Assembly: GCA_964016885.1 (NCBI GenBank)
Contig: OZ024745.1
Coordinates: 107,880,001 to 107,944,000 of the forward strand
Source of the DNA: Eledone cirrhosa
Taxonomy: Eukaryota
Length of the DNA: 64,000 nt
Reading direction: 5' to 3'
In this document: positions 7,270 to 50,915 of the stretch, piece after piece
Layout: every line of letters starts with the position of its first letter
Position numbering within the stretch: position 1 is the stretch's first letter
Position numbers and translations under genes: made by a program
The notes under the pieces: generated by a model
What the model was told of the DNA's origin: nothing
Databases searched by the model: none
The model's input: the letters and a program-made list of their open reading frames with translations, nothing else

Positions 7270-7567
7270 TAGGAGGTGAGTTTTATTGTAGTACAATAAA
7301 GCAATGCAGATATCGGATAAGAAGCACTCTATAGTTTGTAGGACTGGAGTATACATAATATATAAGAACAAAAGATGGTTAAAGGAGTTCCATGTATTTT
7401 ATTATGCGCATTTCAAAAACAAATATCATCATGCAATAATATTTGTGTTTTCATCAGATGTGTTTTATCTGATGAAAACACAAATATTATTGCATGATGA
7501 TATTTGTTTTTGAAATGCGCATAATAAAATACATGGAACTCCTTTAACCATCTTTTGTTCTTATATA
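7270..7567 (-). mobile_element. Family A pLTR-like fold-back element in (TA)n
   Basis: Long arm 7270-7459, apex ~7460-7466, short inverted arm to 7567; other copies at 24600-24770 and 43366-43800. Confidence 0.8.
7463..7529 (+). ncRNA. Type I hammerhead ribozyme (family A)
   Basis: tttat CTGATGA [long stem II aaacacaaatattat..gatatttgttttt] GAAA TGCGCA TA ataaa; palindromic stem III. Confidence 0.8.
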
Positions 7568-7832
7568 TATGTATGTATATATGTATGTATTTTTTCTTGC
7601 AAGTCAGTTCTTTTGTTGCTACGGTCCACGCGGCTGAATTACCGGTCGCTATCTTCAATTTGCAAAGCCCTTTAAATAGTATGTTATTACTCTAAGGTTT
7701 TATACCTTATCGACTGCTTGGCTGCACTTCTGAATGCATTCGTCGGCTTAGCTGCGGCTCGAGCTTCGAATATGCTATACTTCCATTTTTATATATATAT
7801 ATATATATATAGAGAGAGAGAGAGATAGATAT

Positions 7833-8281
7833 ATTTCTTTATTAGCCACAGGGGCACAAAAGAAGGGGACAAATACAAAGGGGGAAGTTTACATACAATA
7901 AAAACGTGTAAAATGTTATCACAGATGGAATTTAAAAGTTAGTCGATTTTCCCCAATAGAGGGAGACAGTTTATATGGGTAACACAGACCCCCGAAAAAA
8001 AAGTGCAACCCTCATCTCCAGGAGTACGAAGAGCTTGTACTCCTTTCCTCTCCTCCTCCTTTTCCTCAATCTACAGGCTGATATAGAGAGAAGGCCCATT
8101 CACTCGGGCCATTCTCGCCACTTTCACCCACCTTTCATAAAACTTGCTGGGGTACAGCACCTCTCTCTCCATCCTGATTCTTCTTCCAAAGTGGTATTTG
8201 AAAAAAAGAATCAGTTGTTGGCCGGAGAGAAAGGTGTCTGACCTCAGCCCTTTCAACCTTGTCCACCATACAACCTCTTTT
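7833..8281 (-). mobile_element. 5'-truncated Tx1/L1-clade LINE 3' end in GATA repeats
   Basis: Minus-strand KEVVWWTRLKGL...ERWVKVARM ORF2 C-terminus, 3' UTR and AATAAA; near-identical copies at 21879-22251 and 47501-47827. Confidence 0.7.
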
Positions 8282-10277
8282 AGATAGATAGATAGATAGA
8301 TAGATAGATAGATAGATAGATAGATAGATAGATAGATAGATAGATAGATAGATAGATAGATAGATAAACAGTAGCAGACTAGACTACAGATATACAACTG
8401 ATTGAGTCTCCAAAAATAGGAAACACATGTTCAAGTATTTATTCATGTTCTGGGGAATTACACGCAAGTGTCAATTTGATTAGAAATAATACTTTATTTC
8501 TATTTGTAATATTGAATATGTGGGTATTCAAGAGACATCATTATAATGTGGAATAACTTAGGTACCGTGTTCTGAGAATTTTAACCGATCATATTGCGCC
8601 CCCAATACTTATTCTGGTATTTATTTTATCGATTCGTATTTGTAGAAGTTGAAGGGTGTATATTTTGATGAAAGTAAGGGAAATAATACATAAGTGCGTG
8701 TATGTGTATGTGTGTGTGTGTGTGTGTTGTATATATTATATATATGTGTGTGTGTATGCGAAATGTAAACAATAAACCACAGTACAATGAAGATATATAA
8801 TAGTTTAACGCTTGATATAGTAAGAAAAGAGTCTTTTCTGACGCTTCGCCGTTTCATAAGAATACAGAATGAGAAATGCAAGAAGAAAAATAAAGTGTCA
8901 AATTTATTCAAAAGCAAAAAGCAAACCTTATTTAGTAAGAAAAATTTTAAAAAGGGGAAACAAAAGGGAAACAAGAACAGGGAAATATAGAGAAAAAAAA
9001 ATGAGAGAAAGAAAGAAGAAAAGGAATAGAAAATGGAGTGGGTGACAAGAGCTCTGGTGTCGTAGAAGAGAGGGGGGTGAAGAGGGAGAGTGATTGGGCT
9101 TTTGGCCTAGGGCAAGAGGGTAGAAGTGCTGCGCCCCGCGGACAAGACGGCAAAAGCATTCCCTCGGACAATGGTCAGTGATACCCGCTGCAACAGCCAC
9201 CCAACCTCGCGGCGCTCCCTCCTCAAGAAGAAATATATACGCAATATCAGTGGTGCGAAGACCGGGAAGAACACAAATCAGGGTAGTACTCAATACATGA
9301 TGAAATGGAGATTGACTACATTGAAGAATTAGTATCTCCACTATGAGCCCTGTGGATTCAGCTTGTCTTCTCAAACTTTCTCAAGGGTAGAGGAGCCACT
9401 TCTCTCTCTCTCTCTCTCTCTCTCTCTCTCTCTCTCTCTCTCTCTCTCTCTCTCTCTCTCTCTCTCTCTCTCCTCTCTTTCTCTTACTCTCTTTCTCTAA
9501 CTCACTCTCTCGCTCCCCATCGATCTCTATCTCTTCCTCTTTAAGTGTGTAAATGTTATACATATATATACATATATATATATATATATATATATATATA
9601 TATATATATATATATATATATATATATATTCGGTTCTTTTGCAATTATGCAAACGAGCCTCTTTGTTAAAGCCATGTCAGTAAAATGAGCCCCTGATTCT
9701 TCCTATTCTGTTGGCATGTAAACAGAACTGCAGACACTAATATTTCTAGGTATTACCCTTCATCAGTACAGTTCGCTGTTCAGCTGCCAACTGTCAGTAC
9801 TAGTGAAAACAGTTCTGTTTACATGCCGACACAAGAGCAAGAATGGGGCGGTCATTCTACTGACATGGCTTTAAAAATGAGGCTTGTTTGCATAAATCGC
9901 AAACGAACTGAATATTATTATTAATATTCGAAAAATTCAGATGACATTTATTGTATTCAGCCATGTAGAACGAAATTGTTATTAGGGTCGGACGCCATGC
10001 TTTCCAGCATAGTTACGTCCCTTTACGATCTGAGTTCAAATCCCGCCGAGGTTGACTTTGCCTTTCATCCTTACGGGAGTCGATAAAATAAAGTACCAGT
10101 AATGCACTGGATAATTGCTGGCCTTGTGCCTATAGTAGAAACAATTATTATAATATATATATATATATATATATATATATATATATATATATATATATAT
10201 ATATATATATATATATATATATATATATATATATATATATATATATAGTTATGTAATAAACAACATAAGGCAATTAT

Positions 10278-47989: not shown

Positions 47990-48179
47990 TAAAATCTAAA
48001 ATACAAGAAAAATCACTAAAAAAAAACAACAACGGATAATGACAACTGCAAAGCTGCATACTGTAAAAACAAAAAGACTCTAAAGTTAGTACAACAAAAA
48101 ATTCTAGTTGATTTGATCAATGGACAGCCTGCTCGCGAAATTAATGCGCTAGTGCTTAAGCTTTTCACAGATATGTGTG

Positions 48180-48550
48180 CTCTTAACGTAGACTATTGAC
48201 AAAGTGTTATGCAAGAGACTTGACGGATGTTATACGAGGATGCTGGGAATGGCTCTCAACATTTCTTGGAAACAGAAGCTGACAAATAAGGAACTATACA
48301 GATCATTACCACCAGTCTCAAAAAAAAAGTTGCCTGCAGACGAATGAAACTGGCTGAGCACTGCATCCGTCATCCAGAAGAGATAGCATCACAACTTGTG
48401 CTCTGGAAACTGACGGTCGGGCGAAGAAGCGTGGGAAGACAGGCCGTCTCATTCATTGATGCCCTGCTGAAAGATACCAACATTGATAACATCGATGAAC
48501 TGAGAAATGTCATGCTCGACTGGGACGATTGGAGAGAGCGTGCTGAAGAA
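48180..48550 (+). pseudogene. RTE-clade LINE 3' fragment
   Basis: DGCYTRMLGMALNISWKQKLTNKELY...RRMKLAEHCIRH...LVLW...GRRSVGR...DWRE. Confidence 0.8.
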
Positions 48551-50354
48551 GAAGTTGACGTAATTCTAGGGGAGATTCAGCGTGGCATATAGTGTAACAC
48601 GGCTGACACTTTCAATTATAGGCACAACTGATTTTATTCACTTGGGTGAAATGGTATAACTTGAAATAAAATGTCTTGCTCAAGGACAACAACGCGAAAT
48701 GTGTCCAGGAATTGAACTGACGACATTACGATTGTGAGTTGAACACCTTATTCACTAAACCACGCTCCTACACATCTAGGATTACATCAATGGTAAATTG
48801 AGTGCTAACCTACTTGATGTAGCAAGCGAAGAACTTGTAATTCATTAAAATAATGCATTTAGTGATGATAATAATTATTGTCTAAATGACTAATTCTGGA
48901 AAAAATGTCAACAACGATATATTATTTAATTAAATGTGGCATGCAGTTTTCGGTTGAATCTGATATGTTTCGCCCTTTTTTAATCCTCTGCGACGAATCC
49001 TCCGTTACTGTAGATGTTTGATGGTTAATAATATGTACCCCATCCACGCCTGGTCAAGACTGACCATGGGTTTGCACTTGGAAATGTTCCTTTCGAAAGT
49101 GTACGCGAGGACAAGCTGTTTTGTGGAAGACCTATAATCGCATATGCATTCCAGTCAACATTCTCCGCACAGCCGATGTTGTCCAAGGGAAAAGCAAAGA
49201 TCAATACAGTTTGACATTAGTGTCATAGCATCTCATTTTTTTTTTTTTGTTTTCAGCTTTGTCAACTGGAATAACAGTAAATAAAGTGTCTTGATAAATG
49301 GGGCAACGTGCGGCCAGTTTCGAAAAGCGAACTCAGGACCATACGATAGTGAGCCCAAAATTCTAATTACTAGGTCACGTGCCTTCACGTGAAAAGAGAA
49401 GTACTTATATGTTTCATTCAGTTCTTATATTTTTATTACAGTATAGATGATTATAGAGACAAACGGAGATTGAGAGATTGGGATTGAAAGAAAGAGAGGG
49501 AGAAAGAGAGAGAGAGAGAGAGAGAGAGAGAGAGAGAGAGAGAGAGAGAGAGAGAGAGAGAGAGAGAGAGAGAGAGAGAGAGAGAGAGAGGGGAGACAGA
49601 AAGAGAAAGAAAAAGAGAAAAAGAGAGAGAAAGGAGAGAGAGAGAGTAACTTGGTTGCTATTTTTAGCATGTGGTGCGGACTACTTGGAGGCCCCTCCTT
49701 AGATTGTTTGGTAATTGGATATGTTGGATGGTGGGAATGGTGATTGCGTGGAGCGAGAAGAGAGGAAATGGGGTACAATGAGAAACTGTGAGTTTGGTGT
49801 GAAGAAAAATTGGTTCACCAATGCCTTGAGTTCTCCACATGTTAATATAATCTACGGCAACAGCTTAATCTAAGGATTAATGAGACTCCGCCTCTCTGTC
49901 AACGTAAGACGAACTGGAACTCAACTTGTCATTCATAATTGTTCGCAAAAAGACCTTCCTACGACATTATCTGCGCCTGTCTGAAAGTAGACGTACGTGT
50001 AGGTGCGTGTATGCGAACAAGAGTATTTGCTACTTGTTACGCATTCCTAATAACTTATCTGTATATGCATATATATATATATATATATATATATATATAT
50101 AGGAACCAGTAAGACCCCGACGGCTGAGCTCAAGCCGTTTCGACGGCTAATTCAGTCCAGAATTAGCCGTCGAAACGGCTTGAGCTCAGCCGTCGGGGTC
50201 TTACTGGTTCCTATTACCCACTCTACTACCCTAAGTATTGAGTACTTTGGTGCGTTATGGTCCACCTGGTTCCTTACCACATTTCCTTCGTTATATATAT
50301 ATATATATATATATATATATATATATATATATATATATATATATATATATATAT

Positions 50355-50915
50355 ATAAAATAATAAAAAAATAATGAATAAAACAATGAAACAGTTCCTT
50401 ATATTAAACAAAAAAAGTTCATTATTTAACGATCGTTTCTAGGATATATATGTGTTAGAATTGGCATGTATATTCAACAGATCTATGTACAAAATTATAC
50501 AAAATTATACAAACTATCAAAATTAAATATACATACCAACACATATATATACCATCTTCAGAAATAATATTTCTGAAGACGGCATATATATGTGTTGGTA
50601 TGTATATTTAATTTTGATAGTTTGTATAATTTTGTATAATTTTGTACATAGATCTGTTGAATATACATGCCAATTCTAACACATATATATCCTAGAAACG
50701 ATCGTTAAATAATGAACTTTTTTTGTTTAATATAAGGAACTGTTTCATTGTTTTATTCATTATTTTTTTAATATTTTATCTTGACTCTGTATTCCGTTTA
50801 TCTTTCACCGAAAGTGATTTTTCATTGCATCTCTTCTTTCCATGATATCCGGATTATATTGAGTTCTTCATACGATTGGACACTACCGTAAACTCTTGGT
50901 AGATTTATCTACATA
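50355..50915 (+). mobile_element. Fold-back element in (TA)n carrying a long-stem-II hammerhead
   Basis: Palindrome 50355-50779 with apex ~50567; tattt CTGAAGA [115 nt] GAAA CGATCG TT aaata at 50568-50711. Confidence 0.8.

Follow-up and report, generated by a model that had tools for sequence, protein, structure and literature searches.

What fixes the turning point of a short palindrome that carries a hammerhead ribozyme motif? The question is raised by a stretch of 64,000 nucleotides (nt) from Eledone cirrhosa (GCA_964016885.1, contig OZ024745.1, positions 107,880,001 to 107,944,000 of the forward strand; hereafter the window), which is AT-rich, dense in microsatellites and part of a 3.0-Gb animal assembly. 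A preliminary description placed eight hairpin apexes at or near the 5' edge of such motifs and proposed that one complementary DNA (cDNA) stops near the ribozyme or at the RNA 5' boundary and snaps back. In our reading, these palindromes consist of terminal repeats (pLTRs) of Penelope-like elements (PLEs) inserted head to head, with the apex at a family-specific 5' limit (the wall), likely a capped start; it is probable that both target ends prime cDNA on one RNA before the ends join. With slightly less assurance, we extend this to PLEs as such: their mode of integration would be paired target-primed reverse transcription, in which both strands are cut by a dimer, either end copies one shared RNA up to the cap from a fixed start site of its own, and the cDNAs join head to head.

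Self-BLAST with simple repeats masked found about 30 local inverted structures in the window. All eight apexes named earlier (2071, 7463, 13808, 14295, 36428, 36825, 43628, and 50567) are among them and are true palindrome centres, the left arm at 14295 being short. As had also been described, a type I hammerhead-like motif adjoins each of them, judged by motif scans, long copies and folding. A strict hammerhead scan gave cores 7469 and 43702, a CUGANGA...GAAA scan gave cores 13832, 14303, and 36436, and long copies together with folding gave cores 50573 (with a giant stem II), 36869 (a U3-A8 variant), and 2122. The last is degenerate in the window and canonical in four sampled loci (L191, L196, L201, L204). 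The motifs show the CUGANGA, GAAA and UH core with stems I-III; families B and J mostly have a U3-A8 core. Rfam returned no match at the gathering score, and its matches by E-value were generic hairpins. Resting on motifs and folding, these are predicted ribozymes. The insertions at the eight apexes are as follows (family letters were coined here, except B, which follows the earlier usage; palindromic insertions have no strand).

7271..7562: family A head-to-head insertion; left arm tailed, right arm tail-less; apex within the 5' strand of stem I, a rare geometry
7461..7531, + strand: type I hammerhead motif of family A, with its core at 7469 and cleavage predicted to follow 7523
43368..43801: family A insertion, apex of the typical kind; the tail-less arm begins at the wall (43634), with G before it
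14275..14361: family C insertion with core 14303; its apex is at the wall, and a TA repeat cuts the left arm short
36372..36560 (end approximate): family C insertion with cores 36436 (+) and 36420 (-); each arm extends to the wall (36426 on the - strand, with G before it)
50358..50900 (end approximate): family H insertion; stem II of about 120 nt, core 50573, wall 50568; right arm tailed
13654..13898 (start approximate): family D insertion; arms end at -23 and -21 from cores 13832 (+) and 13785 (-)
36802..36960 (end approximate), + strand: family J copy from the wall at 36827; U3-A8 core 36869; inverted arm of 20 nt
1847..2275: family K insertion with a degenerate core at 2122; its long arm ends at 2073

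The family H motif at 50573-50716, with its stem II of about 120 nt, is conserved in 664 exact matches.

These repeats belong to a known type of element. Long copies of families A and H carry, upstream of the repeat, just one open reading frame (ORF) of 821/828 amino acids with a YRDD-type reverse transcriptase (RT) motif and, at its C-terminus, a GIY-YIG-like end. Pfam gave no match for the two A and H ORFs tested, and a PDB sequence search likewise gave nothing useful for the family A ORF. For one ORF, that of L266, the nearest Atlas clusters carry HTH_animal, GIY-YIG, and RVT_1 at 0.95-0.98. The 3' repeat is also present upstream in a partial tandem, L285 having such a tandem around an ORF, and the tail continues into the element body at 4 of 38 family A and at least 2 of 36 family C tail ends. 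The A and H repeats are pLTRs of PLEs. Families B, C, D, J, K, and E are counted as probable PLEs by shared architecture, not by a linked ORF; one long family C pair that was examined (L284) had no ORF of at least 250 amino acids. Exact patterns matched the genome 14,746 times for A, 34,377 for B, 17,247 for C, 5,458 for D, and 664 for H. Most copies are pLTR-only palindromes of 150-500 bp, tens of thousands in the genome, and the element type is that of PLE pLTR fragments. Each family has two outer ends, one with and one without a tail of about 65-120 nt, and an insertion reads (TA)n, tail end, apex, internal end, (TA)n. Miniature inverted-repeat or foldback DNA transposons were rejected because the junctions vary by locus and the two ends are unequal. 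A longer member is present in the window:

52493..56758: long head-to-head PLE insertion; 5'-truncated RT/GIY-YIG ORF at 54208-55347 (+); inverted partial copy on the left

Its ORF has a C-terminal GIY-YIG domain (PF01541, E 4.6e-6, Pfam), and BLASTP to it gave a weak match (E 0.005). Two inverted PLE RT-like fragments at 30317-30911 resemble the family A ORF by eye.

The mapping took in 468 copies, duplicates excluded: 72 of A, 209 of B, 90 of C, 52 of D, and 45 of H. They come from 265 loci and the window and were placed on natural long copies as references; copies less than 450 nt from a locus edge had been dropped as well. Most loci were picked through exact matches on C1, so the set is biased to young copies; 39 of the 10-kb stretches in the sample were unselected. 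Genome-wide place counts, for family B and likewise for A, C, D, and H, come from exact patterns.

Each of these families except D, whose ends are broadly spread, has a sharp wall. It lies at -69 nt from the core in A, +44 in B, -6 in C, and -7 in H, and at -42 in J. The long arm ended within 5 nt of it on either side in 16/19 (A), 64/79 (B), 18/21 (C), and 7/7 (H) cases, and the median long-arm end relative to the core was -69 in A, +44 in B, -5 in C, -7 in H, and -10 in D. Copies stop within 5 nt of the wall at 3.3-7.6% per nt, against 0-0.5% per nt in the 70 nt upstream. In long copies the element runs on upstream, and therefore the wall is not the element's end. Mapping of the apexes against CUGANGA, as had been suggested, thus confirmed that they are not uniformly distributed, but the anchor is the family wall and not the core. 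At the eight apexes the long arm ends at -8 from C3 (7463), about -5 (14295), -6 (36428), -7 (50567), -23 (13808), -42 (36825), -49 (2071), and -69 (43628); the wall at 43634 is at -69 from core 43702 with a 1-nt indel. Apex 61703, absent from the earlier list, is about 110-120 nt 5' of its core. The described convergence of unrelated families on one geometry was not confirmed. Genome-wide, the cores lie within 40 nt of each other in only 86 of 3320 family A head-to-head pairs, 7463 being one of the 86, so this apex is the exception and 43628 the rule.

Long copies of family B have a whole ribozyme, and they place the wall inside loop II, at a distance of 43-45 nt from the core on its 3' side. 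The true 5' strand of stem II in these long copies differs from the hairpin in the window. The apex is therefore not in stem II, as had been described, and the 'stem II hairpin' of the window copies is a product of the inversion, a copy of the 3' strand. Native stem II was rejected as a snap-back primer in this family because the window hairpin copies the 3' strand. In four loci (L074, L075, L085, L092) the inferred start and a TATA-like box are inside loop II, with a core that is mostly U3-A8; the 5' end of the transcript would thus lack half the ribozyme and the 3' copy would be whole. The family B insertions, the solo arms and the family E insertion of the window are listed here.

10816..10989: family B insertion; tail-less arm from the wall at 10932 with an extra G; tailed arm shorter
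13957..14150: family B insertion whose apex coincides with the wall in loop II (14095)
27349..27488, + strand: solo tailed family B arm from the wall at 27351 with an extra G
27525..27684: family B insertion
35086..35253: family B insertion
36059..36244: family B insertion; wall 36107
50102..50291: family B insertion; wall 50154
24596..24764, - strand: solo tail-less family A arm that ends exactly at the wall; TA repeats flank both sides
61447..61960: family E insertion; the apex is 5' of the core by about 110-120 nt, with cores at 61825 (+) and 61604 (-)

Two features suggest what the wall is. A Y|A step is found at +1 in A, B, C, H, and J. Three of these families, B, C, and J, also have a TATA-like box, at -29/-30; long copies of J have TATA at -30 from the wall. 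TATA boxes lie about 30 nt upstream of RNA polymerase II (Pol II) starts. Moreover, G precedes 26/51 arms that end at +1, compared with 24/132 other ends, where the native base is C or T (p 3e-5). Where the partner arm cannot supply the base, G precedes +1 in 16/28 against 5/27 (p 0.005). The extra G occurs on both arm types (tailed 15/24, tail-less 11/27). Among the first 100 of 3271 listed family A matches with a non-native base before +1, inspection by eye gave 51 G, 39 T, and 10 A; in the held-out family J, the first 100 of 901 listed matches gave 46 G, 33 T, and 21 A. An untemplated G has been read as a mark of the cap in L1 and SVA (PMC4859970). A TATA box at -30 and an extra G, both on the sense strand, fit a capped sense RNA, and thus the wall is likely a capped Pol II transcription start in the pLTR. 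The other half of the earlier proposal, that the apex marks the RNA 5' boundary, is supported with high confidence: what the apex follows is a 5' wall at a set place, which shows the spacing of a TATA box and the additional G.

The arms at the junctions bear on whether one or two cDNAs were made. The count took in 142 junctions in which both arms span the cleavage site, so that tail-only arms stand outside it. One arm was tailed and the other tail-less in 138/142 of these short pairs and in 19/21 long pairs. The two arms were even within 3 nt in 66 junctions, the tailed arm was longer in 36 and the tail-less arm in 36; among the 21 long pairs the tailed arm was longer in 8 and the tail-less arm in 9, two were even, and two lacked the tail. 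Furthermore, 579 exact loci have a tail-only arm whose partner begins either at +1 or slightly inside it. In all 30 of 30 examined, the other (sense) arm is tail-less and no inverted repeat is shared, and some of these junctions keep the extra G exactly. Solo arms of both types occur in the window (24596, tail-less; 27349, tailed). Arms of the same locus differ by 0.7-4.6%, with private changes, and arms of different loci by 1.7-11.3%, that is, 1.6-4.6 times more, which points to one RNA as the source of both arms.

Strand-switch joints at +1 were also seen in raw reads of restriction-site-associated DNA sequencing (RAD-seq) of three samples that carry the best-matching species label (share 0.49) and are putatively of this species. 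For family A, place 1438, there were 77, 89, and 120 reads with 2-4 starts, in 3/3 runs; for family B, joints at 1485/1486 had 1-4 starts, and depth rises roughly 20-fold across the wall. The coverage of these reads is uneven and few starts may be few loci.

These observations fit a series of steps. Pol II would start at +1 within the pLTR. Both target strands would be cut and extended by the PLE protein, with reverse transcription from two internal sites that bound the tail, as known from a PLE in vitro. On one uncleaved RNA, the tail end would be the priming site for one target end, and the internal site for the other. Both cDNAs may then pass the ribozyme and reach the cap, frequently with a C added opposite it, or break off sooner. 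Their two 3' ends would join by 1-6 nt of microhomology or by end-to-end jumping and then copy each other. Starts in the 5' pLTR would yield palindromes of 150-500 bp, and starts in the 3' pLTR inverted elements on the kb scale.

Several points weigh against paired priming from a capped RNA. The element studied in vitro belongs to another PLE clade, and the available text of that study describes no head-to-head joining (PMC11167929). The start site and the cap are read from DNA and not from RNA. TATA at -30 was looked for in A, H, and K and none was found, and family D has no sharp wall, its 5' ends ranging between -44 and +35. In each family the first loci served to choose the wall, and the set used for the later counts contains those loci; only family J was held out from this choice, and the count of G in 100 family A matches overlaps earlier loci. 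In J, 30 loci examined gave 11 cases with G; one of these derives from a long copy by point mutation, and a template is possible for several. The near-identical arms fit a snap-back equally well, and short self-copying at some junctions, such as the family A spacers, indicates that local fold-back does occur. Spacer inversion between inverted arms with central deletion could make both the 36:36 ratio and the tail-only class from a snap-back.

Beside paired priming, the next best explanation has a single cDNA that begins at the tail end, leaves the RNA at its capped 5' end, folds back on itself and is copied to the internal site; later spacer inversions and central deletions would scramble which arm looks longer. 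The apex would still be the transcription start. We regard this as unlikely, yet as a serious alternative. The wall, TATA and G evidence holds for it unchanged, the arms are nearly identical and share private variants, the junctions have short microhomologies and self-copied spacers, and inverted-junction palindromes of PLEs have been read as self-priming (PMC3846280). However, with such a cDNA both the spacer and the G should belong to the tailed arm in every case, and 11/27 tail-less arms at +1 carry G. Scrambling would have to bring the arms to 50:50 even in the youngest copies. The longer-arm ratio in family B shows no age trend (5:4, 8:6, 11:13), the youngest copies, with no mismatch to a neighbour, being at 5:4, and events with identical arms have the tailed arm longer in 6 and the tail-less arm longer in 11. 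The 579 tail-only junctions, some with the exact extra G, would need a flip and a deletion, and the tail-less end is an RT start site in vitro (PMC11167929). Where both arms reach the wall, 7/24 junctions have a spacer of 0-2 nt. A hairpin cannot prime below a minimum loop size, and such spacers are too tight for a priming loop. The single snapped-back cDNA of the preliminary description is thus disfavoured, chiefly by the 36:36 split and by the tail-only arms joined to tail-less arms near +1.

It is very improbable that the wall is set by self-priming of an antisense transcript (Arkhipova 2013) or by a fixed-site endonuclease cut in element DNA and is not an RNA end. Head-to-head palindromes have been explained in this way (PMC3846280), the PLE endonuclease cuts its own pLTR (PMC11167929), and small native palindromes are present at some walls, as in family A. 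The TATA box at -30 and the extra G are nevertheless both on the sense strand, as a capped sense RNA would have them, and the walls have no sequence in common beyond Y|A. Later in vitro work, moreover, copies sense RNA from target DNA (PMC11167929).

Nor is there much room, perhaps a shade less, for the view that the fold of the ribozyme, or its 5' edge, makes RT stall and that the ribozyme position defines the inversion point. Long arms do end at the stem I edge in C (18/21), H (7/7), and D (6/16), and short arms often end within the ribozyme. In A and B, which already largely refute it, they do so in only 2/19 and 0/79, apart from the rarity of that geometry in A genome-wide. The walls of J, K, and E are 42-120 nt from the core, and the family C site also has TATA at -30. 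At the wall, B copies never cross loop II into the native 5' strand of stem II, and only 4/209 B copies end at the cleavage site. The inversion point thus goes with a wall that differs between families, and the apexes are off the cleavage site. In C and H the apex meets stem I because the wall happens to lie there, and +1 and the ribozyme would be near each other only since both sit in a repeat a few hundred nt long. Two window copies, 10335 and 9770, begin anew at the cleavage site or close to it; ends at that site are as rare as noted, however, and cleaved RNA was rejected as the general template. Three asymmetric insertions (10248-10423, 9630-9911, 45534-45766) have a short arm that begins at or near the predicted cleavage site; it is possible that cleaved RNA or stem I pairing was used in these. 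Finally, assembly or library artefacts can be practically dismissed, for although palindromes are a known artefact class of fold-back chimeras, the arms differ by 0.7-4.6% with private changes, the outer ends fall on two element-specific sites, the extra G is present, and the joints at +1 recur in three raw Illumina runs of other samples.

Other inverted structures and repeats were noted in the window. At 4029-4873, two fully complementary arms of 420 bp are separated by a 5-nt spacer, with TA at one end and sequence that continues at the other; hammerhead scans found no motif there. At 27405-27607 and 43069-43338, tail-to-tail pairs surround a TA run with the polarity opposite to the main class, and the first of them consists of two family B insertions in one microsatellite. 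A mariner-like transposase remnant, recognized by eye from the translation, lies at 31264-31893 between 115-bp inverted repeats (31068-31182/31869-31982). A dispersed repeat of about 190 bp that resembles short interspersed elements has more than 10 copies (974-1167, 6003-6200, 9984-10151, 18805-19398, 29732-30027, 45943-46138, 57927-58293, 59745-59936, and 63507-63872). GC-rich ORF fragments at 25332-26185 look by eye like the end of a non-LTR retrotransposon ORF.

The origin of the tandem and inverted structures of PLEs has been named as open in the text available from PMC8557442 and PMC11167929. This genome offers tens of thousands of independent junctions and thus countable predictions for the existing in vitro system. 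If paired priming is true, one rule would cover the tail, the inverted 5' copy and the tens of thousands of mini-palindromes, and a long-unexplained signature of PLEs would be accounted for. Each apex would record the transcription start of its element, allowing PLE promoters to be mapped from DNA only, the ribozyme would be read through intact, and one origin would be identified for a great number of perfect inverted repeats in an animal genome.

The closest known systems are the PLEs that encode an endonuclease (EN+). Inverted 5' copies, the tail and TA targeting have been described for them, with the mechanism called open (PMC8557442), as have inverted-junction palindromes, TATA/initiator (Inr)-like motifs and a self-priming model (PMC3846280), and hammerheads (PMC4209133). 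The elements studied here share with them the head-to-head inverted pLTRs, the tail on one arm, the junction palindrome, the TATA/Inr-like motifs in the pLTR, the minimal type I hammerheads with a palindromic loop III, the (TA)n targets and an ORF of about 820 amino acids with RT and C-terminal GIY-YIG. As far as the available text of these papers goes, the copies here differ in being mostly pLTR-only palindromes of 150-500 bp, in the tens of thousands, in having tails of about 65-120 nt compared with 30-40, and in that the apex has been mapped to a capped-start signature, with family B starting inside its own ribozyme. The published mechanism is left open (PMC8557442) or proposed as self-priming (PMC3846280). 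The protein of PAc (Anolis Poseidon) cuts and extends both target strands in vitro; two internal RNA start sites bound the tail, uncleaved RNA is used, and a dimer is predicted (PMC11167929). The part of that paper available assigns no strand to either site and describes no head-to-head joining, whereas the genome here implies one arm per site (138/142). We found no publication that links the apex to a capped start or to paired priming; subscription journals, including older PLE reviews, were scarcely covered, so a similar model may exist in print.

Non-LTR retrozymes, which are PLE derivatives, are also non-coding, have a type I hammerhead and are related to PLE pLTRs (bioRxiv 10.64898/2026.07.22.740005, in the part available). 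They form head-to-tail arrays with a ribozyme in each unit, whereas the window copies are single head-to-head pairs and not head-to-tail units, and for this reason they were rejected as retrozymes. A separate family of 310 bp, with identical head-to-tail units each containing a type I hammerhead motif (L280:2587-5530, L175:1-2854), does have this retrozyme-like structure; its arrays also occur as head-to-head insertions, whose two different outer ends lie in (TA)n some 30 nt from each other, like PLE fragments.

Twin priming by LINE-1 (L1), a long interspersed element, yields an inversion with little or no overlap. It resembles the proposed mechanism in that both target ends prime on one RNA, the cDNAs are joined by microhomology and full-length 5' ends carry an extra G (PMC4859970). 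Here, in contrast, both cDNAs would copy the same stretch, giving an inverted duplication, from two fixed sites and with no poly(A). The palindromes thus come from a known kind of element, and the mechanistic reading of them is new and testable.

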